From sequence record MT446386.1: 64,000 nt of DNA; one strand, given 5' to 3'. This DNA comes from Escherichia virus TH06. Numbering within the stretch: the first letter of the stretch is position 1; every line of letters begins with the position of its first letter. Below, in pieces: positions 4,193-15,260 of this stretch. The notes below the pieces were generated by a model. The model saw only the letters and a list, made by a program, of their open reading frames with translations, was not told the origin of the DNA and searched no databases. The position numbers and the translations under genes are program-made.

Positions 4193-7100
4193 TCACTCCT
4201 TAGGTCGAACTCTTACACGGAGTCTCGATTGACGCTTACTGCGTTCAAGCTTCTCTGACAATGAGCCACGTTTAATCTTCGGCTTCCCTTCGTCATTAAA
4301 CTTCTCCAAGAACTGCAAGTACTCAGTACGATTGGTTGTCTTGTAAGAAGGAATCTTAATATCAGGGTTCTCTTCAATTACACGTCTCATCTTCGCTACA
4401 TCATCCCTACCAAGCAACTTACTCTTAGCCTGTTCAGCTGTAGAACCAAAGATTTTCTCCAGTGCTCTGGATTTGTTACCACCTGCGGAAGAAGCACCAA
4501 GTTTAGCAATGGCAGAGTAATCATCAGCACTAAACCAAGCTACTGGATTATCACCATACTTCTTCTTGTTTTCAGCAGCAGTCTGCAATGCACGTACAAA
4601 GCGACGGTTGTTACCAGCCTTATCTGCACCATGAACCCTGTCTAAAACTTCAGCCACACTAACCAACTCATCCAAGCTTTTCCCACTCAAGAAAGCTTTC
4701 TCTACTTTATCAGCAAAGACCTCTTCCTGTTGTTTAATGCTTTCCAAGATATCAGAATTTGCTTGAGATCTTTCATCATCAGGCAGAGCAGAACGAATCT
4801 TCTCCATCTCCAACTCTTCCTCTTGCAGTTTCTTAATATCAGAGTCAACCTTCTGAGCCTCCTCAATAGCCTTCCTGGTATCCGCATCCAAGTTATCAAG
4901 CTTACCTTCAGTATCTCCAGTAACCTTAACAATCTCTTTCTCGATAGGGGTCATTGATTCATACTTCTTAGCAAACTTCTCAACATCAGCTTCGATACGA
5001 GAACGAGCATTCTGATGTTCAGTAGGAGTCATAGGCTTCTCAAGAAGTGCATAACGGTTATCCATATAGGAACCAGCAAATGCTTCAGCATCCTCTCTAG
5101 ATATGCCCTTATCTTCCATAGTACGCATCAGGCGGCGATGAATGTCATCACGTTGACGTTGTACTGCCATAAGGTCATTCTCACGCTCTTGGGCCGCTTT
5201 AAGCTCTTCACTGCGCTTAACTCTCTTGTCCACATCAAACTTACGGTTCATTTCTTCCGCTTGCTCATACATCTTGTTCCACTTGGCCTGACGAGCATCT
5301 TCCTCTGCATCAGTTAAACGACGCTGACGATCAAGGTAATCTGACTCGGCGTTGTGGATACGTTCAATGTAACTACGGAACTTCTCTGGAGGAACTGGAG
5401 AGTTCTTGTCATGGTGAGCAGCCAACTGTTTCAATGTACGAGATTCCTGAGCCTCACGAACAGGTTTAGGTAAACCTTCCATCATCTTCTCAATCTCACT
5501 CTTCTGAGCTGCAATAGCCTCTAGAGTTTTACGTTCATTCTCAACAGCAGCCTTAGCATCTGAACGAGCCTGAGCCTTTTTCCTGAGGGTAGCAAGACGT
5601 TCTTCACGAGCCTGTAAGTGCTTAGCAGCAGCTTCGTACTGAGAGTTCTTGTTAGCTTTGTTGAAGGCATTCACTTCTCTGTTGTAGGTGTTAATAAACC
5701 CATCCCAAATATCCTTCATCTGACCGACTTCCAAAGCCTCTTCCCTACCAGCCTTCTCTGAAGATTTAAACTTCCCATCTACAAAGTCATTCATCAGCTT
5801 ACGCATAGCATCTTTCTGAGCAGGACGTAAAGGTTCTGAATCAATCAAAGCATCAATCTCAGACTGAAGCTCTTTCTTCTGGTCAACCAGTTTAGGAGCA
5901 TCTTTCTTATCGAAAGCTTTGTTCTCTTCTAGAGCTTGTTGGTACAGTCTATCAAACTCATCCTCACGCTGCTTCTGATACAACCTTTCAGCACGACGTT
6001 TCAGACTATCCAAGTTAGTTACGTTCCCACCTAAACCTTTCTCTTCAGCACGTAATGCCTTAGTGGCAATGTCTTCTGGCAGACCACGTTCTTTAACCCA
6101 TTCAGCAAAATTAGTTCGTACAGTGTTGTTCTTAGCAGTAGCAATACCTTGCTGAGAGGCCAGCTGGTTACGAGCCATTTCTTCATGACGTTCAGTATTG
6201 ATAGCATTATCTTCCTGACGAATACGACGCATCAGTTCCTTAGGATCGCCTTTATAAGCCAAGAAGTTTTCAGCAGTAGCTTTAGCTTTAGCAGCCTTAG
6301 AGTACAGAGAACGAGCAAAGCGTTCTGCACGATCTTTAGTAGCCTGACGAGCAGCACTAGACATAGCAGCTAAACGTTCTACACCACTTGCCGGTTTAAC
6401 GTCCTGTACAGCTTCCTTAGGAGCTTTAGGAGCACGAGCAGGTAATGGCTCAGCTTTGACTGTTGGTTCCTCTACGGTTGGTTCTGGAGCCTGTGCGGCC
6501 TCTTCTTGAGCACGTTGCTGTTCCATTGCACGACGCTCCTCTAGAGGGTTACGAGCAGGGAGAGGTTCAGCCTGTGGAGCTTGTTCGACCGGAGCTTCTT
6601 GAGCTGCTGCTGCCTCTTCTTCAGCGCGACGCTGTTCAGCCTGACGGATAGCGCGTCTTTGCGCAACTAAATCACGAGCTGTGAGAGGGGTTTCTTGAGG
6701 AGTAGAAGAAGGAAGATTTTCTTCCGTCACAGTACTAGAAGAAGGCTCCCGAACCGGTTCGGTTTCCACGTCATTTTGCGTCTTAAATTTAATGTCATCA
6801 ACAACTGGTTCTTCTTCCATCTTAGCACGAGCTTCATCAGCAGTAGATTTAGCACGAGCAACTTCCAAATCACCACGAGCCAGAGAGCGGATAGCTTCAC
6901 TATTAGACTCTTGTTGCTTAACACGTTGAGAACGGGCACGCTGAGAAGAGAAGCGATTCAGAGCATATTTAGCAGCACCGAGAGTGTTCATCACCAGACT
7001 AGGAGAAGAAGCCTCACGGAATCCATCATCAGTCAAGGAAGTCCAACCACGATCTTGGTTGCTCATGAATTTAGCTGTATTGTTCAGAGTGTAAGCATCT

Positions 7101-8659
7101 TGAATAGGATTAAAACCTTCAGGCATACCTTTCAGTTTCTTCAACCCACCGATAGCTTTCTTCATCTCTGGAGAAACATTATCAGCCATCTTCTGTAGTT
7201 CAGTAGCTTTCTCTACAAAGTTATTAAAATCTTCACCTTCACGAGCTTTGAATCGATTTGCTTCATTGTAGAAAGTCTTGTAAGCATCAATGAAATCACG
7301 GTCAGCTTGTGTACGATTCTTAATATCAATCGGACTACCAGTAAAATCACCAGAAGCTCGGAGAGAAGTTAATTCACGGTCTAGGTTATCTAGAACATCT
7401 GTAAGAGCTTTCGTGTTGTCTTTGGTGTAGTCAGCCATTGCATCCTTCATAGCAACAGCCTGCTTCTGGTTGTGCTCATTATCAGCAAATGCTTTACCAC
7501 GAGTCTTAGCAGGAGAAGCTAAAGGATTAAGGCCCGGAATGTTGGAATGTTCTTTCTGAACAGAAGCAGCTTTCTCAGCACGAACTTGGTCAGTATTAAG
7601 AATACGCTGAGCAGCAGGAGAATCTACAGCAACAGCATCTGTAATACGGAATCCATTCTCATCCAGAAGGTTAAGAGCAGAAGCAGCGTTAGCAGTTTCA
7701 GCTTTAGAGTAAGCTTCTTTCAGTTCATCAATATTCTTAGCACTACGAATTAGTTCATCATCAGCAGCAATATCAGTCTTCGCATACTCTGGAGTATTCT
7801 TGAAGACAGCAGAATCCGGACGGCTAATCAAACCATGAACCCCACCAACTGCACCACCGAATGCAGCACCCATAGCACCTTCTTCGATAGCACCTTCTAA
7901 TACATTGGCAAAGGTTGTGTCATCTCCGTGCTTATTCTGAGCTTCAGCAGCACCCACAAGAGCACCACCTTTAGCACCAGCCACTGCGTTACTAGCAACG
8001 TTCTGACCAATACGTCCAAGTGTGGACTCAGCTGTACCGACAGCACCTGGAAGGATTCTCTGAGCCGCATAGTTAGCACCACCAACTAAGGCTGCATCTA
8101 GAATAGACTTATCTTCTCCCTCTTCAGGGGTTTGGTCTGCATATGCACGACCTGTCTCACGACCTGCGATGATAGCAGCAGCAGCCAATGGGTTAGCAAC
8201 TGTCAAACCGATATCACCAGCAACGCCAGCATACTGACCGACAGTTTTACCAATCCCATCCTCAATCTTATCCATACGTTCTTTCAGAAGGTTCTGAGAG
8301 TTCTCTTGGATACGCTTACCATAACTAGTTTGTGCTCCAGCTAGATTCTCACCAATCTCAACTAAACCACCAATACCTTTAGCAGCACTAGCTGCAATAT
8401 TTGCACCACCAGATTGAAGAGCATTTGACACACCTTGAGCAAACTCACCTATAGCACCACGTTCTTCTTGTTGTGGTTGTGCTACTGGTTGTTCCTCAGG
8501 AATAGAGCCACCTGCTGCCTTATATTGTTCTCTCATTTGAGCTTGTTGCTCCGGAGAGGCATTCAGATACGCAGGAGCTTTGGAAGCTTCTTCCCACGGT
8601 TTAATGTTAGCCATAACGTCTCCTTTTATAAATAAAAATGTCCTACCCCCTATATACAT
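4193..8659 (-). CDS. large internal virion / ejection protein (1488 aa)
   Basis: Last gene of late operon; long coiled-coil rich ORF; position analogous to podovirus internal core proteins. Confidence 0.45.
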   Translation of the reverse strand: MYIGGRTFLFIKGDVMANIKPWEEASKAPAYLNASPEQQAQMREQYKAAGGSIPEEQPVAQPQQEERGAIGEFAQGVSNALQSGGANIAASAAKGIGGLVEIGENLAGAQTSYGKRIQENSQNLLKERMDKIEDGIGKTVGQYAGVAGDIGLTVANPLAAAAIIAGRETGRAYADQTPEEGEDKSILDAALVGGANYAAQRILPGAVGTAESTLGRIGQNVASNAVAGAKGGALVGAAEAQNKHGDDTTFANVLEGAIEEGAMGAAFGGAVGGVHGLISRPDSAVFKNTPEYAKTDIAADDELIRSAKNIDELKEAYSKAETANAASALNLLDENGFRITDAVAVDSPAAQRILNTDQVRAEKAASVQKEHSNIPGLNPLASPAKTRGKAFADNEHNQKQAVAMKDAMADYTKDNTKALTDVLDNLDRELTSLRASGDFTGSPIDIKNRTQADRDFIDAYKTFYNEANRFKAREGEDFNNFVEKATELQKMADNVSPEMKKAIGGLKKLKGMPEGFNPIQDAYTLNNTAKFMSNQDRGWTSLTDDGFREASSPSLVMNTLGAAKYALNRFSSQRARSQRVKQQESNSEAIRSLARGDLEVARAKSTADEARAKMEEEPVVDDIKFKTQNDVETEPVREPSSSTVTEENLPSSTPQETPLTARDLVAQRRAIRQAEQRRAEEEAAAAQEAPVEQAPQAEPLPARNPLEERRAMEQQRAQEEAAQAPEPTVEEPTVKAEPLPARAPKAPKEAVQDVKPASGVERLAAMSSAARQATKDRAERFARSLYSKAAKAKATAENFLAYKGDPKELMRRIRQEDNAINTERHEEMARNQLASQQGIATAKNNTVRTNFAEWVKERGLPEDIATKALRAEEKGLGGNVTNLDSLKRRAERLYQKQREDEFDRLYQQALEENKAFDKKDAPKLVDQKKELQSEIDALIDSEPLRPAQKDAMRKLMNDFVDGKFKSSEKAGREEALEVGQMKDIWDGFINTYNREVNAFNKANKNSQYEAAAKHLQAREERLATLRKKAQARSDAKAAVENERKTLEAIAAQKSEIEKMMEGLPKPVREAQESRTLKQLAAHHDKNSPVPPEKFRSYIERIHNAESDYLDRQRRLTDAEEDARQAKWNKMYEQAEEMNRKFDVDKRVKRSEELKAAQERENDLMAVQRQRDDIHRRLMRTMEDKGISREDAEAFAGSYMDNRYALLEKPMTPTEHQNARSRIEADVEKFAKKYESMTPIEKEIVKVTGDTEGKLDNLDADTRKAIEEAQKVDSDIKKLQEEELEMEKIRSALPDDERSQANSDILESIKQQEEVFADKVEKAFLSGKSLDELVSVAEVLDRVHGADKAGNNRRFVRALQTAAENKKKYGDNPVAWFSADDYSAIAKLGASSAGGNKSRALEKIFGSTAEQAKSKLLGRDDVAKMRRVIEENPDIKIPSYKTTNRTEYLQFLEKFNDEGKPKIKRGSLSEKLERSKRQSRLRVRVRPKE

Positions 8660-8681
8660 TATAGAAGGCAGGACTTAGGTC

Positions 8682-10331
8682 TTATTGAGTAAACCAGCTA
8701 GTGTCTTCGACAGCTGATAAAGCACCATTAAGCTTAGGATTGGTTGCTGCACCACCAACTGCTTCTTCTGCTTGTTCAGAGAAAACACCTAGAGGGTCAT
8801 AGAAACCACCAGAAGGGATTGCACGGTTAACCAATGCAGTAGCTCTCTTCTTATCCATACCAGAACCGATGTAAGCTTCAATCGTAGCTCTCTTAGCATC
8901 AGCAACACCTTTCATTGCAGAGGTGTGACCAACGTTAGCTTGCTTACGAGCATAAGCAAGAGCAGAGTCAGTAGGACGCCATCCAGATTTCAGTGCAAAC
9001 TTGTTGCCAACACGAACGAAGATTGATGGGTCTTCTGCAAAGTGCCCTAAGTCTTCTTCGGTAAGAGAACGAGTAGCACCGATTTCAGCCCTTGCGGAGT
9101 TCATGATAGCCTGCATGTAAGCAGAACGAGCTGTCTGATAGTCTTTATCCTTAACAGCCTTATCAGCCAAATCCAAGTCTTTGTTAGACTGGTTAAACAG
9201 GCCACCTTTCTCTGCCCACTGCTTAGCAACCGTACCTTCAGCTGTGTTCTGAGCAAGACGAACTTCTTTCGGGTTAAAGTTAAAACTCTGAGCAGCTTGC
9301 TCAGCACGTTCAGCCTTAACCTTATCACGATAACCAATCAACTCTTTCTGACGTTCAAAGTTCATGTTAGCCCTTTCTTCAGCGGCACGACGAGTTTCAT
9401 CAGCACGCTCACGCATAGTTTGCTCTTGAATCTGTTGACGTCTATCCCATTCAGCATTTTGTCGTTCTTCACGAGCAGCATACAGTGCTTCTTTCTGAGC
9501 AGGGTCTACAGCTCTCATCTTCAGTAGAGATGGGTCTCCGTTAGCAATAGCAGCTGCGATCGAGTCTTGAGAGAAGCCTTGTTCAATCAGAGCATCACGG
9601 TTAGCTTCAAGTTGCTTCTTAGTCTCATCTTGATTAGCCATTCCCTGACCAATCTGGAAAGCTTCAATAGGAGACTTACCTGACATAATGGAAAGACCTA
9701 CACCCATCAAACCTGTGTAGAAACTAGAGTTCTGATAGAATGGTTCTTTCTGTAGTTTGTTCCAAGCTTCCGAAGGGTCTTTAGCTTTCGCAACTTGCAA
9801 GATATCGTTGTTAACACGTTCCTGATCTTTAGCACGAGTAGCAGCAGTCATTCCATCACCAGCGTCTTGTCCTTGAGCAAGAGTATTAATCACACCTTGT
9901 GCCTGTTCAACCTGAGAAGGAGTAAACTCCATAGGACCAGCTTCTAACGGTTTAGTAGGAGGTGTTACCGGAAGAGGTTCTGATTCTGGAGGAATAGAAG
10001 AAGGAGAAAGTCCAGCAGCTTGCATGGTTTCTTGATTCTCAAACTCAGGAAGAGTTACATCCTGTTGTGCTTGAGGTTGTACATCATTTGGGATATCAGA
10101 AGGAAGACCATTACTCTGAACAGGATTCAACATATTCTGATAATCTACTGAAGTTTGACCTACAAGAGAGGAAAGCCCAGCAGGTATAGCAGGACGTTGA
10201 TACATAGAAATATCTGCTGTCTGAGTTGGTCTAGCCATATAAGGAGAGGCCGAAGCCGCTCCCGGATTAACACCATAGAAAGTATTTCTCGGGTCACGAC
10301 TTCTGACCTGAGCGTAAGTTGTCTGTTGCAT
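8682..10331 (-). CDS. internal virion protein (549 aa)
   Basis: Long ORF in late operon with charged coiled-coil segment. Confidence 0.4.
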   Translation of the reverse strand: MQQTTYAQVRSRDPRNTFYGVNPGAASASPYMARPTQTADISMYQRPAIPAGLSSLVGQTSVDYQNMLNPVQSNGLPSDIPNDVQPQAQQDVTLPEFENQETMQAAGLSPSSIPPESEPLPVTPPTKPLEAGPMEFTPSQVEQAQGVINTLAQGQDAGDGMTAATRAKDQERVNNDILQVAKAKDPSEAWNKLQKEPFYQNSSFYTGLMGVGLSIMSGKSPIEAFQIGQGMANQDETKKQLEANRDALIEQGFSQDSIAAAIANGDPSLLKMRAVDPAQKEALYAAREERQNAEWDRRQQIQEQTMRERADETRRAAEERANMNFERQKELIGYRDKVKAERAEQAAQSFNFNPKEVRLAQNTAEGTVAKQWAEKGGLFNQSNKDLDLADKAVKDKDYQTARSAYMQAIMNSARAEIGATRSLTEEDLGHFAEDPSIFVRVGNKFALKSGWRPTDSALAYARKQANVGHTSAMKGVADAKRATIEAYIGSGMDKKRATALVNRAIPSGGFYDPLGVFSEQAEEAVGGAATNPKLNGALSAVEDTSWFTQ

Positions 10332-10344
10332 ATTTATCTCCTAA

Positions 10345-11313
10345 TTAAGTACTAGCCAACCCACCGATTACACCCCCAGCTAATGCACCCCAAGGCCCAA
10401 AGGAAGAGCCAGCTGCTGCACCACTCATAGCTCCACCAAGGAAACCACCTTTGCCACCAGATGTTTTAGTAGTTGTAGTTTGTCCGAGAGCACCGTTAAG
10501 TACACCTGCTGCACCGAGTTGGTTATTGATATCTTGCCATCCCCAATTAGCTGCGTTCTGAGCATTCTGGTAGGCATTATCATATTCATTCTGTTGTTGC
10601 TGTTGTTGCTGCAACCCTGCATTCCATTGATTCATTATTTGCTGTTGAGACAAATTAGCACCCTGCTGACCTAGGTTAGAAAGGTTAGAACCAATATTAG
10701 AAAGACCAGAGAGAGCAGCTGCCTGATTCTGTCGATTACCAGAGAGGATGCTTTCAGCTTGGCTAATAGCCGAGTTATAGGCACTATTGGTAATATCTGT
10801 TGCTTGGCCTTGCATCTGATTCAGAGCATCACCTTGGGCAAAAGATTTAGCCATACGAGCACCTGAACCTTGTTGACCAGCAAACTGTTGAGCTAACTGA
10901 GGAAGAGCATTACGTGCCAAGTTCTGTTGAACCTGTTCATTATTAGCTGTAATGGCTGCTTGCACAGCGTCATCATCATACAGTTGACCAGCGAGAGCAC
11001 CAATCTGTTCTCCAGTAATCCCACCTTGTCCAGAGAGGCTCTGATAGCCTTTATAGGCATTATCTAGATAACCCAAGCCTTGACCTGCTGCATCCATGTA
11101 TTGCTGTGAGAGAGTGCCCAAAGCGCCAGATTGTGCTAGGTTGTTAAGTGCCTCTGTCTGATTATTATTAAACCCTACATTATCTCGATAAACATAATCC
11201 CCTGAACTAGTATTACCGATCTGCTGGTTAAGCTGGTCAATATACTGTTGAATGTATTCAGGGCGAATCATTTGGGAAGTAGTTTTACTACCCCCGCCTC
11301 CGAAAAGTCCCAT
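10345..11313 (-). CDS. Gln/Asn/Gly-rich virion protein
   Basis: Low-complexity Q/N/G-rich sequence; N-terminus MGLFGGGGSKTT parallels the next gene. Confidence 0.4.
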   Translation of the reverse strand: MGLFGGGGSKTTSQMIRPEYIQQYIDQLNQQIGNTSSGDYVYRDNVGFNNNQTEALNNLAQSGALGTLSQQYMDAAGQGLGYLDNAYKGYQSLSGQGGITGEQIGALAGQLYDDDAVQAAITANNEQVQQNLARNALPQLAQQFAGQQGSGARMAKSFAQGDALNQMQGQATDITNSAYNSAISQAESILSGNRQNQAAALSGLSNIGSNLSNLGQQGANLSQQQIMNQWNAGLQQQQQQQNEYDNAYQNAQNAANWGWQDINNQLGAAGVLNGALGQTTTTKTSGGKGGFLGGAMSGAAAGSSFGPWGALAGGVIGGLAST

Positions 11314-11325
11314 ATCAAATCTCCT

Positions 11326-12378
11326 TTAGTTTGCTCCAAATGCCCCTAAGACACCACCTAAGATATTACTACCTGCTGTGGATAACCAGTTAGACTGACC
11401 TCTCTGTTGAGAAAGATTAGAACCTCCAATCATAGGTCCAGCCATTCCAGATTGCCCACCTGAGTTGTTATAGGAACTCCAAGCATTCTGAGTCTGTTGA
11501 TTAGGAGAGAAAGCACCCATACGACCTGCAATACCTAAACCAGTGATACCAGCACCTAGGAGCTGTTGTCCAGTATTAACACCCGGAGCAGCATTCTTAA
11601 TTGTATACCCAGCCATTGGGCTTACACTATTTAATACATTAAGTTGGTTGTTAAGCTGATTCCACCCATACTGCTGAGAGCCAATAGCGTTCTGCCAATT
11701 AATATCAGCTTGAGCTTGGGCTTGTTGCTGTTGTAGATTACCAGCCATGAGTTGATTCTGGATAGCTTGTTGAGTTGCCTGAACACCTTGAGCACCTAGG
11801 TTGAGATTCTGTCCAGCCAATCCTGACTGAGCACCAAGTAAACCTCTCTGGAAGTTTTGGTCTTGTTGAAGAGCACTGATTCCCATATTCTTGCCACTGA
11901 TAGTACGAGCTAAGTTTGTATTAGCACTGTTCAGAGCAGCACCTTGAGCAGCAGCTCTACGGAGAGAGCCTGAATCAGAACCATTTCCGAGGGATACATT
12001 GGAAGCTGCCTTACTAGTCGCTTGAGCAAGAGCTGAGTTATTCAATCCTTTACTAAAGTTATTAACACCATCAGCAGTTAGACCACCACCATTGACAATA
12101 TTCTGATACTGCTGTGCAAGAGAGTTTAATTGGTCCAACCCTTGCTGTGTACGAGGCGTGTACATATCAGCCAATTGCTTCTGAGTAGTAGAAGCTGCTA
12201 AGTTGTTCAGAGCACCCTGTTGGTTGCCATTAAACCCAGCCAGTTGTTGGGAGATGAATCCCGGATCGTTGTTCTGCATATTCTGAGCATTAGCAACAAT
12301 CTGCTTCAGCAGGGCATCAACCTGAGAGGAAGGGGCCACTGTGGTTTTGCTAGAAGCTGATTTTCCAAATAAAGACAT
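11326..12378 (-). CDS. Gln/Asn/Gly-rich virion protein (paralog of 10345..11313)
   Basis: N-terminus MSLFGKSASSKTT; Q/N/G-rich. Confidence 0.4.
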   Translation of the reverse strand: MSLFGKSASSKTTVAPSSQVDALLKQIVANAQNMQNNDPGFISQQLAGFNGNQQGALNNLAASTTQKQLADMYTPRTQQGLDQLNSLAQQYQNIVNGGGLTADGVNNFSKGLNNSALAQATSKAASNVSLGNGSDSGSLRRAAAQGAALNSANTNLARTISGKNMGISALQQDQNFQRGLLGAQSGLAGQNLNLGAQGVQATQQAIQNQLMAGNLQQQQAQAQADINWQNAIGSQQYGWNQLNNQLNVLNSVSPMAGYTIKNAAPGVNTGQQLLGAGITGLGIAGRMGAFSPNQQTQNAWSSYNNSGGQSGMAGPMIGGSNLSQQRGQSNWLSTAGSNILGGVLGAFGAN

Positions 12379-12397: not shown

Positions 12398-13180
12398 TTA
12401 CTTTACACCAATGCTAGCCAGACGTCTGAGCACTGCTTGTGTTTGTGGACTGTACTGAGAACCTGCTGCATGTGGTGCACTTGCCCTCTGAACTGTTTGA
12501 GAAGTGGGAGGTTTACCAGCAAGCATAGCAGCTACCCCTAATACTGCATTACCAAAGTTCTGTTGAGGTTTCTGATTTTCGCCTTCCTGCACTTCATCAG
12601 AGTAAAACTCTACTGGATTTCCACCTAAAGCACCTGTCTTAGAAGCAGCAATCTCTGCCTGAGTTGGAGCTTGTGCGGCCTTCTCTCTATCTAACAAGTC
12701 AGGACTAAACTGATTGACTGGTTGAACAGCTTGCAAAGCTCCAACAGGGTTAGCAATCTGAGAAGCTGCATCACCATAGAAAGGAAGAAAGTGTTTGTTG
12801 TTCATTGAGTCAAGGGCTTGAGGTGTAAATCCCTTTTTACCAGCGAACATTTGCTTAGCACCACCGATACCTTCTGAGTAACCAACCATTGCTTTCTTAA
12901 CATCACCATTAAAAGCCTTTAAGTTATCTCTAATATAACGAGCACCCATATCAATATTCTTTGCTGGGTCAAGTCTGTCTTCTAGTTTGTAACCGTAATC
13001 TTTAGCCAACCCTTTACTAATCTGCATTAAACCTACAGGACCAGTTCCAGAAGCCACTGTAGGACGACCACTAGACTCTCTTTGGATTACAGCATGAATC
13101 AAAGCAGCAGGAATCCCATACTTCTTTGAAGCCTGTTGAACCATTGGGTCTAGTTCTTCAATACCCATTCTAATTGACAT
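12398..13180 (-). CDS. SLT-domain lytic transglycosylase (virion-associated)
   Basis: VIQRESSGRPT and GLMQISKGLAKDYGY motifs typical of soluble lytic transglycosylases. Confidence 0.6.
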   Translation of the reverse strand: MSIRMGIEELDPMVQQASKKYGIPAALIHAVIQRESSGRPTVASGTGPVGLMQISKGLAKDYGYKLEDRLDPAKNIDMGARYIRDNLKAFNGDVKKAMVGYSEGIGGAKQMFAGKKGFTPQALDSMNNKHFLPFYGDAASQIANPVGALQAVQPVNQFSPDLLDREKAAQAPTQAEIAASKTGALGGNPVEFYSDEVQEGENQKPQQNFGNAVLGVAAMLAGKPPTSQTVQRASAPHAAGSQYSPQTQAVLRRLASIGVK

Positions 13181-13189
13181 AATAACTCC

Positions 13190-14224
13190 TTATTGTATAC
13201 TCCTGAATATTTTCCTAGCATCTAATATCGGAATGCTTAATCCGAGAGCACCACCCCCTCCTAAATCGTATTGGTCACTCCAAGAGTAAATCATCCTACC
13301 GAAACCTGTGCTGAAAGAAGAGCCATTCATCATGTGAGATCTTGTGTGTTGAAAATACCAACCACTAGTCCTGCCTCTTATTGCTCCGGCTCCGTAAGAT
13401 AGTGGTATCATTGGATAGGCCAGAGATGTGTTACCACCACTCATAGGCATAAATCCCTCAACACTAAAAGGGGTTCTATATGTAGAAAATACACACTGAT
13501 ACCCATTTGGAGAAAAGATATTTAAACCTCCATTATGAGTCGGTACTCCAGAACCATCACAGAAGACGGCAATTCTAACACCGCCAATGGATCCTGTTTG
13601 GTTTGTGTTACCATTATCATGAGACCTGTTCTGGTACACATAAACAACCCTATTGGATGGATTGTATAGAAGCCCTGCTCCTCCGTTACTCCAATTTGCG
13701 TAGACAGTTGCTCGGCTCATATCAAAACCACCAATATCTGGTATTTGAAGAGAACCATTTATGTCACCTTCCCAAGCCCAAATACATTGACCAACAACTC
13801 CAGAATCAGAGATTGAGAAATAGTCAGCAGAGTTGGAGAATGTGATTCCATAGTTCCTATTAGCTCTAGGCCATATTTGATACACATTAAAAGCCATATC
13901 AAATATCCAACCGTTTACGTTATAGTCCATAGTAACTCTGAAGGTTGAGTTATTAATAACAGATATGTCAGTTATCCAATATACATCAGATGTTAAATTG
14001 GGAGGTATGTATCTCTCCCAAACAACAGACCCTGTTGGAACTATAACTATCTGACCACTACCATCCCAACCACTTATAGGCAAGTCACAGGTATTTCCAC
14101 TAAAAGAGAAATTCCCACTGACCCTATTTCTGAGTTGAGGGAATGTGCTACCACTATCAATATAAATATCAGCAGGGGCCGCTGGACCCGGACCAACCGG
14201 GCGTGTCCATATTCCATATGCCAT
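13190..14224 (-). CDS. tail / structural protein
   Basis: ORF in tail module; no specific motif recognised. Confidence 0.35.
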   Translation of the reverse strand: MAYGIWTRPVGPGPAAPADIYIDSGSTFPQLRNRVSGNFSFSGNTCDLPISGWDGSGQIVIVPTGSVVWERYIPPNLTSDVYWITDISVINNSTFRVTMDYNVNGWIFDMAFNVYQIWPRANRNYGITFSNSADYFSISDSGVVGQCIWAWEGDINGSLQIPDIGGFDMSRATVYANWSNGGAGLLYNPSNRVVYVYQNRSHDNGNTNQTGSIGGVRIAVFCDGSGVPTHNGGLNIFSPNGYQCVFSTYRTPFSVEGFMPMSGGNTSLAYPMIPLSYGAGAIRGRTSGWYFQHTRSHMMNGSSFSTGFGRMIYSWSDQYDLGGGGALGLSIPILDARKIFRSIQ

Positions 14225-14225
14225 G

Positions 14226-15260
14226 TTACCAACTCCCTATTCTTATGCGAAGAGTTCCACTCCCATCATAAAAATCTATTCTATTACCATTCATCCACAA
14301 CTGAGAACCACCTGTACCACCCATAACAAAATCACCACCAACAGTAAGTCTCCAGTTAGAACCCCACATAGAGCCAGCAGTAATCTTATCCGCTGACAAG
14401 TTCTGAATCTGAGCATTGGAGATGGATACGTTATCGATCTGTGCCCATTGGATTCTAGCGTTAGCAATCTGAGCTGTTGTGATATTGACATTCTTTATAT
14501 CAGCAAATTCCATCCTAGCTCGCCCACCCTCAAACACGAAGGGAGTATTCCCAGAGCTACCATCACCAACAATAAATTTGTTAGCTGTTACTTGGAATTG
14601 ACTGTTTGTACCATTATTAGTTAACTTGACCCCAGCATATCTTCCGTTGACTGTAGAGTTAATACCCCACGTAGCTTCATACTCAGAGAGTTTCATATAC
14701 TGAGAAAGGCTTCCGTTGATATTTTGTAGTTCTGTCTGAACAAGAGCAATCTCTTGACCTTGATCGTTAACAATACCTTCTACTGTCTGAATTTTAGTTG
14801 TGTTACCTTCGATGCTGGTCTTAAAACCAGATACAGTGCTTTCTAGCTTCACAGGGGGTTGAACAGAATTATCCCAAATGTCCTCAGTGGACAGGTTCCC
14901 CATCTGGGTTTGGATATCTGCAATAGCTGTTTCTATCTCTGTAGTAATTCTATTCTCAAGCTCATCAAATTGTAGATTCATTGCATTAAGAGCTTTAATA
15001 CGAACATCAATCTCTTCGTGAATTTCATCTATAGCTTGGAACATTTGGTTAGTAGCTGTGCTAACTTTTTGTAATTCATCATACACGGCTACGTTATATG
15101 TTTCTGTGTCCTGTACATTATTGAGAAACCCAACGTTGTACGGGAGTGTGGTGTTATTGCGACCAGTGTTCTTACGAAAACCACCTGCACCCATAAGTTC
15201 CTCCAAAACAATAAAAGGGGCACGAAGCCCCTTGTTGTTATCTCCGCCCGCCAACAGCAA
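14226..15260 (-). CDS. tail fibre protein
   Basis: C-terminal repeat ANARIQWAQIDNVSISNAQIQNLSADKITAG resembling phage tail-fibre repeats. Confidence 0.45.
   Translation of the reverse strand: MLLAGGDNNKGLRAPFIVLEELMGAGGFRKNTGRNNTTLPYNVGFLNNVQDTETYNVAVYDELQKVSTATNQMFQAIDEIHEEIDVRIKALNAMNLQFDELENRITTEIETAIADIQTQMGNLSTEDIWDNSVQPPVKLESTVSGFKTSIEGNTTKIQTVEGIVNDQGQEIALVQTELQNINGSLSQYMKLSEYEATWGINSTVNGRYAGVKLTNNGTNSQFQVTANKFIVGDGSSGNTPFVFEGGRARMEFADIKNVNITTAQIANARIQWAQIDNVSISNAQIQNLSADKITAGSMWGSNWRLTVGGDFVMGGTGGSQLWMNGNRIDFYDGSGTLRIRIGSW

Follow-up and report, generated by a model that had tools for sequence, protein, structure and literature searches.

In Escherichia virus TH06 (MT446386.1), two adjacent genes on the minus strand of the 64,000-nucleotide stretch analyzed here, hereafter the window, encode proteins of 350 aa (11326–12378, −) and 322 aa (10345–11313, −). 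On DNA sequence the phage is assigned to the phiEco32/SU10-type coliphages (Kuravirus), sharing 98% DNA identity with phage MN03 and its relatives. Both ORFs start with ATG, and an AGGAG-type ribosome-binding site stands ahead of each. The 350-aa product is the basic member of the pair (pI 9.9) and the orthologue of SU10 gp21 and phiEco32 gp23; the 322-aa product is the acidic one (pI 4.3), orthologous to SU10 gp22 and phiEco32 gp24. Scanning within and between both genes for promoters and terminators yielded nothing convincing, with promoter-like sites fewer than in shuffled sequence, and the opposite-strand ORFs over the locus are short (64–66 aa).

As an earlier preliminary description of this DNA had indicated, the genes lie between an SLT transglycosylase and the large internal proteins. 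Upstream of the pair is a 260-aa SLT lytic transglycosylase (12398–13180, −; Pfam SLT, E 1.2e-23), the counterpart of the SU10 ejection protein gp20. Downstream are a 549-aa protein (8682–10331, −; phrog_12130), whose counterpart SU10 gp23 is also an ejection protein (PMC9509320), and a large internal protein (4193–8659, −) corresponding to SU10 gp24, which is listed as an ORF of 1488 aa and comprises 1473 aa when counted from Met16; phrog_14629 matches residues 16–1488 of this ORF. Size and gene order make the 549-aa protein a candidate periplasmic-tunnel subunit, occupying the same position as LUZ24 gp51/Pa223 gp54 (505 aa) and P22 gp20 (471 aa), and the ~1473-aa protein a candidate inner-membrane/cytoplasmic subunit; a PDB search with the 549-aa and 1488-aa neighbours returned no sequence match to solved structures. 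Both genes of the pair match the gene position needle/gp19/SLT/gp21/gp22/gp23/gp24, and a cassette composed of SLT, 350-like, 322-like, ~500–560 aa and 1100–1500 aa proteins is kept in distant relatives.

Composition and architecture of the paired proteins

The reported domination of both proteins by Q, N, G, A and S is confirmed by the residue counts. Together these residues make up 61.8% of the 322-aa and 62.9% of the 350-aa protein. Of the 35 window ORFs with at least 150 aa (median 32%), these two rank highest in this respect. Charged residues account for 8.7% and 6.6%, respectively. The poly-Q runs noted earlier correspond to a Q7 tract (QQQQQQQ, residues 235–241 of the 322-aa protein; 10591–10611, −) inside a predicted long helix (H219–275), together with a QQQ at residues 223–225 of the same protein, and to a Q4 tract (QQQQ, residues 216–219 of the 350-aa protein; 11722–11733, −) inside the predicted helix H192–249. 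The N-termini are parallel, as had been described: MGLFGGGGSKTT (codons 1–12 of the 322-aa protein; 11278–11313, −) and MSLFGKSASSKTT (codons 1–13 of the 350-aa protein; 12340–12378, −) share the motif M-G-(L-F)-G-G, which in the extended form M-G-(L-F)-G-G-x(3-5)-T-T is retained by both subfamilies and by the majority of distant members of the family.

At its C-terminus the 322-aa protein carries a glycine-zipper tail, GGKGGFLGGAMSGAAAGSSFGPWGALAGGVIGGLAST (residues 286–322; 10348–10458, −), made up of two short hydrophobic segments that flank a PWG turn. This tail is nearly invariant among homologues and holds 8 of the 15 GxxxG positions of the whole protein. The 350-aa protein has two such segments. 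The first, QQLLGAGITGLGIAGRMGAF (residues 271–290; 11509–11568, −), is hydrophobic, Gly-rich and conserved, contains the hydropathy maximum of the protein (Kyte-Doolittle, 19-residue window, 1.16 at residue 273) and is paired by hhalign with the beginning of the tail of the 322-aa protein. The second, the terminal Gly-zipper segment WLSTAGSNILGGVLGAFGAN (residues 331–350; 11329–11388, −), is preceded by a Q/N/G/S-rich linker, and the broad family HMM aligns residues 297–350 to the tail region a second time.

The characterization of these proteins as low-complexity stands only in part. Low-entropy sequence (12-residue windows, at most 2.2 bits) covers 34% of the 322-aa and 19% of the 350-aa protein, and the BLAST filter masked the final third of the former. 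However, homologues align position by position at 40–80% identity, both proteins have invariant R, P, Y, W and G positions, and both are predicted to be helical over their first 250–275 residues. AlphaFold2 monomer models built with family alignments reached mean pLDDT values of 39.5 and 41.7, with secondary structure the only usable part of either model. Foldseek found nothing with E below 1 when the 322-aa model was compared with the PDB, and sequence searches of a PDB copy that does not contain P22 gp7, run with each protein and with narrow and broad profiles, gave chance-level matches only (E above 0.1).

Paralogy, known counterparts and wider family

The two proteins align with each other at 30% identity by BLASTP (E 1e-12) and with a probability of 99.9% by hhalign (E 2.8e-33), and by this sequence evidence we regard the two genes as a tandem duplicate of one ejection-protein gene. 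Both match phrog_4287, annotated as 'DNA ejection protein' (E 1.4e-117 for the 350-aa and 3.5e-109 for the 322-aa protein), and scans of Pfam and NCBIfam returned no family for either. Their opposite charges extend to the respective subfamilies: net charge lies between −2 and −10 in each of the 31 proteins of the 322-aa subfamily, and in the 26 proteins of the 350-aa subfamily it is mostly positive, with a median of +5. In total the family comprises 682 clusters at 50% identity.

The closest counterparts, SU10 gp21/gp22 and phiEco32 gp23/gp24 (RefSeq 'DNA ejection protein'), are practically the same as the window pair, are encoded in the same order and show no material difference from it. Identity of the 322-aa protein is 100% with SU10 gp22 and 99.1% with phiEco32 gp24 ('putative DNA injection protein'), and that of the 350-aa protein is 97.1% with SU10 gp21 and 99.4% with phiEco32 gp23. 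Mass spectrometry of SU10 virions recovered gp21 with 53.4% coverage (11 peptides) and gp22 with 49.1% coverage (5 peptides; PMC4281155), in agreement with the proposal that the pair are virion proteins. Siborova et al. (2022) reported that SU10 gp20–24 are present in virions and missing from genome-release intermediates, and named them ejection proteins, which prolong the nozzle to give a translocation channel (PMC9509320). According to the same study, SU10 has five ejection proteins rather than the usual three, its nozzle lengthens the tail by 28 nm and its channel is closed by the tail needle gp18 (PMC9509320). Because the near-identical SU10 gp21 and gp22 are found in virions and are missing after genome release, the window proteins fall in the ejection-protein class. 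The earlier suggestion that they could form part of an ejection channel is thereby supported, and its alternative, a plug, found no support.

The status of the pair as ejection proteins is therefore already known, and for this reason the discovery value is low: the finding is real but largely ordinary. In the literature on the SU10/phiEco32 pair we found no individual role, structure or statement of paralogy for these proteins, and they go unmentioned in both the ejection-protein review (PMC8954989) and the Privateer paper. What the present analysis adds is the paralogy, the charge opposition, the membership in a large family, the link to LUZ24 gp53, the tail match to P22 gp7 and the S74 fusions.

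Among 485 LUZ24, P22 and T7 ORFs, the broad family HMM matched LUZ24 gp53 alone, and the match spanned the entire protein (76.9 bits, E 5e-23, profile positions 9–328). The narrower 322-aa subfamily HMM matched it at E 7.8e-7 and the hhalign comparison of the merged profile with the single LUZ24 gp53 sequence was weak (probability 6.5%), the relationship being clear only with a profile enlarged by distant representatives. LUZ24 gp53 was compared in place of Pa223 gp56, of which it is presumably the orthologue, having the same length and position; the LUZ24 and Pa223 genomes are 83.6% identical. Pa223 gp56 has been detected in virions by mass spectrometry and is a proposed outer-membrane channel subunit, a role that is itself predicted. 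These Bruynoghevirus proteins (313 aa) belong to the same size class as the Kuravirus pair, and LUZ24 gp53 likewise lies upstream of ~505–550 aa and 1000–1500 aa proteins and shares with the pair a Gly-rich hydrophobic C-terminal tail and an N-terminal GGSK..TT..P.Y motif. It differs in having ~26 additional N-terminal residues, and Bruynogheviruses carry one copy where Kuraviruses carry two of opposite charge.

The family also includes the 'DNA ejection protein' of Grimontviridae, represented by Privateer gp018 (409 aa, E 2e-76), a virion protein verified by mass spectrometry, and pSal-SNUABM-01 gp026 (412 aa, E 1e-74). These proteins occupy the same cassette position as the Kuravirus pair, but are encoded in single copy and carry an extra C-terminal module of ~85 aa that the pair does not have. 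In pSal-SNUABM-01 gp026 this module is a borderline Peptidase_S74 match (20.6 bits against a cut-off of 22), and Privateer gp018 has no Pfam match. Pfam detects Peptidase_S74 in 16 of the 104 proteins of alignment A5 and in 7 of 34 large representatives, and in neither of the window proteins; the S74 junction S|DxxxK, placed after the tail, occurs in 28 of 132 family representatives. Some relatives have the family domain fused to cell-wall hydrolases, sometimes following S74, and such fused relatives, P0149 among them, weakly match PHROG families annotated as tail fibre. The S74 chaperone in relatives points to trimers, the fit of which with a gp7-like dodecamer is not obvious.

Similarity to P22 gp7

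By hhalign, the last 32 residues of the P22 gp7 family pair with the tail of the 322-aa protein at a probability of 87% (E 4e-6), and with the broad family the probability is 96.4% (E 1.4e-9); for the 350-aa subfamily no similarity to P22 gp7 was detected. The 322-aa protein and P22 gp7 have in common the C-terminal motif SGA..G...PWGA..GG.IG.L. The Pfam P22_gp7 model (PF25688, gathering score 28 bits) matches neither window protein at E up to 10, and at E up to 0.01 it matches 2 of the 104 proteins of alignment A5 (best 5.2e-6); some family members match Pfam P22_gp7 and the Gly-zipper families. We rejected full-length homology with P22 gp7, as just the C-terminal 32–50 residues align, and a similarity confined to a short glycine-rich tail could be convergent.

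The likeness extends to composition, P22 gp7 consisting of 57.6% QNGAS and 10.5% charged residues, with the composition of the tunnel and inner-membrane proteins being different from that of the pair, and to gene order, which parallels that of P22 (needle, non-virion factor, gp7, gp20, gp16). Like the pair, P22 gp7 is virion-borne and ejected. It has 229 aa and a 20-residue propeptide that is cleaved by host OpdA, whereas both window proteins begin directly at the Gly-rich motif, without a gp7-type N-terminal extension. In situ, the C-terminus of P22 gp7 forms a V-shaped hairpin of two helices within the outer membrane, the gp7 body builds a hub-to-membrane channel via Q/N hydrogen bonds, and the lumen of the portal and tail houses the P22 E proteins (preprint 10.64898/2026.09.03.749273). 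P22 obtains two conformers, gp7-o and gp7-i, from one gene, where the window phage has two genes. T7 gp14 and DEV gp73, which provide the outer-membrane pore in the T7-type and N4-type ejectosomes, offer a functional analogy only: they are the smallest, membrane-active members of their ejection cassettes and the first out, but they are about half the size of the window proteins, and T7 gp14 is 20% charged. Homology with T7 gp14 was rejected, there being no signal among the T7 ORFs, and the profile searches of the PDB revealed no sequence relation to these pore subunits or to other solved ejection proteins.

A proposed channel module and competing readings

Taken together, we consider it probable, though by a measured judgment, that the pair constitutes a gp7-like, possibly heteromeric, outer-membrane channel module of the Kuravirus DNA conduit. 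Both products would be packed in the head and expelled via the tail after release of the needle, and would form the initial, outer-membrane-proximal part of the conduit that continues the SU10-type nozzle. The helical Q/N-rich bodies would provide the wall of the tube, held together by polar contacts, and the uncharged C-terminal glycine-zipper segments would enter the outer membrane as helical hairpins comparable to the P22 gp7 C-terminus. The SLT neighbour would then cut peptidoglycan, and the 549-aa and ~1473-aa proteins would carry the channel on across the periplasm and inner membrane. The two paralogues may co-assemble into one heteromeric ring, as suggested by the fact that they always co-occur and have conserved opposite net charges. 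The identity with proteins demonstrated in virions and lost on genome release, the paralogy, the family membership and the tail match to P22 gp7 are established; the outer-membrane location, the order of assembly and the formation of a hetero-oligomer are elements that we infer. A stricter version, which we advance only tentatively and think rather doubtful, makes the pair an obligate hetero-oligomer (e.g. 6+6) in which duplication and charge divergence would have fixed gp7-o/gp7-i-like conformations in two genes, with the family stored or folded as trimers; storage or folding as trimers is suggested because a fifth of the family's diversity would be matured by a self-cleaving S74 fibre chaperone right after the membrane-inserting tail.

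The way in which short-tailed phages move DNA across the envelope of Gram-negative hosts has only lately begun to be resolved, in T7, P22 and the N4-like DEV. Kuraviruses are present in phage-therapy collections, with no role assigned to any of their five ejection proteins, and the present analysis gives testable role assignments for two of the five, as well as a sequence profile that can be used to annotate hundreds of 'hypothetical' phage proteins. If true, the stricter version as a whole would define a hitherto undescribed and widespread outer-membrane-channel ejection superfamily, spanning Kuravirus, Bruynoghevirus, Grimontviridae and P22-like phages.

Several other readings accommodate part of these data. 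The pair, as ejection proteins, might instead form another section of the conduit, be it the periplasmic tunnel, a peptidoglycan collar with the SLT protein or the inner-membrane part, with the outer membrane breached by another protein or by the nozzle and needle. With five ejection proteins and a 28-nm nozzle in SU10, roles may indeed divide differently; in relatives the domain is joined directly to peptidoglycan hydrolases, and glycine zippers are not confined to the outer membrane. We nevertheless regard this assignment as unlikely: size and gene order place the 549-aa and ~1473-aa proteins at the tunnel and the inner membrane, the tail resembles the hairpin that P22 gp7 has in the outer membrane, and the charge of the pair is very low compared with known tunnel proteins, which are 19–30% charged. 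A role in storage or gating, in which the proteins would act as a plug or liner in the lumen of the portal barrel, adaptor or nozzle, holding the DNA end and controlling its release with no lasting function after ejection, strikes us as distinctly improbable. The SU10 map does contain unassigned portal-barrel density attributable to the DNA end or to ejection proteins (PMC9509320), P22 E proteins are kept in the portal and tail lumen, and a plug had been proposed in the preliminary description; yet the SU10 channel is already closed by needle gp18, the conserved hydrophobic glycine-zipper tails and the links to gp7- and Pa223 gp56-type proteins argue for membrane insertion, and storage in the lumen is compatible with later channel formation.

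The prospect that the pair are external, fibre-like trimeric tail components is one to which we give almost no credence. It draws on the S74 junction in the 28 of 132 representatives and on the tail-fibre PHROG matches of P0149, names that may stem only from the S74 domain; the SU10 cryo-EM tail model is complete without gp21 and gp22, both of which are lost on genome release (PMC9509320), and the window proteins are without an S74 domain and lie inside an ejection cassette. Scarcely more credible is that they are disordered, prion-like Q/N-rich fillers that associate non-specifically, for instance to form a gel or condensate within the head or to act as an osmotic or pressure buffer. Their extreme Q/N/G/S content, poly-Q runs and low AlphaFold confidence would be expected of such fillers, but conservation over the 682 clusters is position-specific, certain aromatic, proline and arginine positions never vary, both models contain long predicted helices, protein length is maintained, and a protein of solved channel architecture shares the terminal motifs. 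The Q/N-rich composition reflects a conserved helical, putatively membrane-active family, not generic disorder.

Composition and virion location of the gene pair

The two adjacent genes encode proteins of 350 aa (11326-12378, minus strand, starting MSLFGKSASSKTT) and 322 aa (10345-11313, minus strand, starting MGLFGGGGSKTT) in the ORF listing; they are separated by 12 nt, and each has an ATG start with an AGGAG-type ribosome-binding site upstream. A gene for a 260-aa SLT-domain protein (Pfam E 1e-23) lies upstream of the pair, and ORFs of 549 and 1488 aa lie downstream. Gln, Asn, Gly, Ala and Ser together account for 62.9% of the 350-aa protein and 61.8% of the 322-aa protein, the two highest shares among the 35 window ORFs of at least 150 aa (median 32%), with charged residues at 6.6 and 8.7%, respectively. 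The 322-aa protein contains runs of Q7 and Q3, and the 350-aa protein one of Q4. ORF, composition and Pfam data therefore agree with the preliminary description of an adjacent, Gln/Asn/Gly-rich pair with poly-Q runs, flanked by SLT and large genes, but its label of low complexity holds only in part. Low-entropy stretches (12-residue windows, <=2.2 bits) cover 34% of the 322-aa and 19% of the 350-aa protein, and BLAST masks the final third of the former, whereas homologues at 40-80% identity can be aligned column by column with both proteins and reveal invariant R, P, Y, W and G positions.

The DNA of the region is 92-98% identical to that of some 80 Kuravirus phages of Escherichia and Shigella, among them MN03, phiEco32, SU10 and NJ01. 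According to annotated records, the 350-aa protein is phiEco32 gp23 (99.4% identity) and SU10 gp21 (97.1%), and the 322-aa protein is phiEco32 gp24 (99.1%) and SU10 gp22 (100%). Neither protein matched a model in Pfam and NCBIfam scans; both matched phrog_4287, 'DNA ejection protein' (E of about 1e-117 for the 350-aa and 3.5e-109 for the 322-aa protein). Mass spectrometry of SU10 particles by Khan Mirzaei et al. (2014) detected gp20, gp21, gp22, gp23 and gp24, with 53.4% coverage (11 peptides) for gp21 and 49.1% (5 peptides) for gp22 (PMC4281155), so that absence from virions is not the case for proteins identical or nearly identical to the pair. Siborova et al. (2022) reported SU10 gp20-24 in virions and missing from genome-release intermediates, and concluded that they are five ejection proteins, released once the needle detaches, that extend the nozzle into a translocation channel; their cryo-EM maps resolved none of the five (PMC9509320). 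The pair is hence a real and correctly read feature, packaged and ejected, and its proposed part in an ejection channel is supported and was previously known for Kuravirus. The present analysis adds its paralogy with charge complementarity, family-level ties with Pa223 gp56-type proteins and the tail of P22 gp7, and fusions of relatives to S74 and hydrolase domains.

Paralogy, charge and extent of the family

The two proteins are paralogous: BLASTP aligns some 300 residues at 30% identity (E 1e-12), and the profiles of their subfamilies match along their whole length (hhalign probability 99.9%, E 2.8e-33). Both copies lie side by side in every Kuravirus-like context examined, namely the window, a metagenomic relative (L005) and a more distant element in an E. 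coli assembly (L003), always in the order SLT, 350-like, 322-like, a protein of about 500-560 aa and one of 1100-1500 aa; Grimontviridae (7-11-like pSal-SNUABM-01, Privateer) and Bruynoghevirus LUZ24 carry a single copy. Net charge is acidic in 31 of 31 members of the 322-aa subfamily (-2 to -10, median -7) and mostly basic in the 350-aa subfamily (-1 to +11, median +5, n = 26), the window proteins having pI values of 4.3 and 9.9, respectively.

The Kuravirus group is regarded as strictly lytic. The L003 locus (GCA_023211535.1, contig DAHCAP010000002.1, 204317-225285) is a Kuravirus-like module in a 389-kb bacterial contig, comprising SU10_MCP, SU10_portal, SLT, both paralogues and genes of 498 and 1113 aa; it could be a prophage-like relative or an assembly chimera. 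Enterobacter cloacae and E. mori contigs also carry homologues (P0095, P0091).

A two-subfamily profile searched against 1.84 billion cluster representatives delineated a large ejection-protein family, with 682 proteins at E <=1e-3 and 108 at <=1e-10, mostly 300-430 aa long and covering the whole profile. The family has an MG(LF)GG-x(3-5)-TT N-terminus and a central GS(S)R motif, which reads GSSRxG across the wider family and G-S-x-x-R among members of the 322-aa subfamily, where G149, S150 and R153 show little or no variation. At the C-terminus, a Thr-rich stretch leads into a hydrophobic glycine-zipper tail.

Among the 150 best family matches, 34 are proteins of 685-1591 aa, all of which match phrog_4287 and carry the ejection-protein domain at or near the N-terminus, beginning at residues 2-86. 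Pfam identifies Peptidase_S74 in seven of them and, downstream, Hydrolase_2 in two, SLT in one and Peptidase_M15_4 in one; in P0149 and P0162, the two inspected singly, S74 comes directly after the family domain. Such fusions link the family domain functionally to cell-wall-degrading internal virion proteins, and they match the separate SLT gene beside the window pair. The family representatives P0149, P0162 and P0211 are giant proteins of 1000-1300 aa: in P0149 and P0162 the ejection-protein domain precedes a Peptidase_S74 self-cleaving junction (S|DxxxK), with a downstream Hydrolase_2 in P0162, while P0211 has an SLT domain without S74. One close relative is annotated as 'internal virion protein D'.

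In a broad alignment of 104 proteins, made up of the window pair, LUZ24 gp53 and 101 smaller representatives, Pfam finds a C-terminal S74 in 16, Gly-zipper_YMGG in 4, Gly-zipper_Omp in 3 and P22_gp7 in 2. By motif, the S|DxxxK junction lies right behind the tail in 28 of 132 representatives, and 61 of the 132 terminate there, like the Kuravirus proteins. In S74 chaperones an endosialidase Ser-Lys dyad cuts at the junction Ser, so the product would end just past the glycine zipper, at a point equivalent to the natural C-terminus of the window proteins.

Relation to Bruynoghevirus and P22 proteins

A narrow HMM of the 322-aa subfamily ranked LUZ24 gp53 (L006:12258-13199, minus strand) as the top ORF in the 25.6-kb LUZ24 stretch examined (E 7.8e-7), and an HMM enlarged with 116 distant representatives matched the entire protein (76.9 bits, E 5e-23), with no match in P22 or T7. 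These matches imply that the Kuravirus pair is homologous to the Bruynoghevirus protein. LUZ24 and Pa223 are 83.6% identical at the genome level, and in LUZ24 the 313-aa gp53 lies upstream of the 505-aa gp51 and the 1055-aa gp50; from genus, length and position, we infer that LUZ24 gp53 is Pa223 gp56. A preprint on Pa223 (10.1101/2025.06.11.659172) proposes that gp56 (313 aa) forms the outer-membrane channel, gp54 (505 aa) the periplasmic tunnel and gp53 the inner-membrane complex, arguing from gene order, mass spectrometry of virions, transmembrane-helix predictions and AlphaFold3 models of nonamers. In LUZ24 gp53, about 26 residues (MNFLQFNVKRLMGFDVEDALDSRAY) precede a KGGSKKQKTTS motif; they resemble the 20-residue OpdA-cleaved propeptide preceding KGGKGG in P22 gp7 and may constitute a cleavable leader in Bruynogheviruses. 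The KGGKGG of P22 gp7 is exposed only once its 20 residues are removed; the MG(LF)GG..TT N-terminus is near-universal in the family.

P22 gp7 (L009:9369-10058, plus strand) ends in ...SAIGGGASGAIAGAGLAKLIGSSTPWGAAIGGGIGLLGSLF and the 322-aa window protein in ...GGFLGGAMSGAAAGSSFGPWGALAGGVIGGLAST. In profile-profile comparisons the gp7 family aligned with the 322-aa subfamily (probability 87%, E 4e-6) and with the broad family (probability 96.4%, E 1.4e-9), in both cases over the last 32-33 columns only, and gave no signal with the 350-aa subfamily; a gp7-family HMM matched one family member, across 51 C-terminal residues. Since Pfam P22_gp7 matched neither window protein, we do not claim gp7-family membership. 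A September 2026 preprint describes mature P22 gp7 in situ as a dodecamer with C6 symmetry in which gp7-o and gp7-i conformers are paired, held to gp20 by Gln/Asn hydrogen bonds, with a V-shaped C-terminus from which each subunit supplies two helices to the outer-membrane pore, with hydrophobic residues I191 to F229 (10.64898/2026.09.03.749273). It is exactly to this outer-membrane region that the 322-aa protein's tail aligns. The composition of P22 gp7 (57.6% QNGAS, 10.5% charged) is also like that of the pair, unlike that of the tunnel and inner-membrane proteins of P22 and T7, and the P22 gene order of needle (26), non-virion factor (14), 7, 20 and 16 parallels that of the window (needle, DUF6453 protein, SLT, pair, 549-aa and 1473-aa proteins). 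By analogy, the window proteins are treated here as working like gp7.

AlphaFold2 monomers predicted with family alignments had low confidence (pLDDT 39.5 and 41.7), and both models are all-helical up to residue 250-275, the longest helices spanning about 55 residues, with a non-helical Gly-rich tail beyond. A fold that forms only in an oligomer would be expected to give low monomer pLDDT, but the low values prove nothing. Foldseek with the 322-aa model yielded no match in the PDB at E <1, nor did profile searches reveal a relative of the pair among PDB sequences.

Proposed role and neighbouring genes

We propose, with moderate confidence, that the pair would leave the head first or early, after needle release, that its Q/N-rich helices would assemble into a tube continuing the nozzle and that its uncharged glycine-zipper tails would enter the outer membrane, while the SLT protein would open peptidoglycan and gp23 and gp24 would finish the periplasmic and inner-membrane parts of the conduit. 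More tentatively, the acidic and basic paralogues may co-assemble, possibly in place of the two gp7 conformers.

The pair might instead form a different section of the conduit, a reading that we consider distinctly less likely. A luminal plug is improbable, and a disordered filler, against which the column-wise alignments speak, is very improbable. The S74 chaperone is typical of trimeric fibres, yet for proteins lost from particles on genome release an external fibre seems the most doubtful reading of all.

Several features of the surrounding genes were also recorded. The 1488-aa large internal-protein ORF (4193-8659, minus strand) starts 15 codons upstream of the annotated phiEco32/SU10 start (1473 aa, MANIKPWEE...), and its phrog_14629 alignment begins at residue 16. 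The 344-aa DUF6453 protein (13190-14224, minus strand), encoded between the needle and SLT genes, is the counterpart of SU10 gp19, which is missing from the SU10 virion mass-spectrometry list (PMC4281155); its place in the gene order corresponds to that of P22 gp14, a non-virion factor encoded between the needle gene and gene 7. Where the 1005-aa nozzle gene meets the needle gene, a GC-rich hairpin carrying T-runs on both strands (15215-15233) resembles a bidirectional terminator. Another hairpin, with a 15-bp stem and a T-run behind it (8640-8674, minus strand), lies in the 67 nt that separate the 549-aa gene from the gene for the large internal protein; it resembles a terminator or attenuator and could reduce how much of the ~1473-aa protein is made compared with the smaller ejection proteins.
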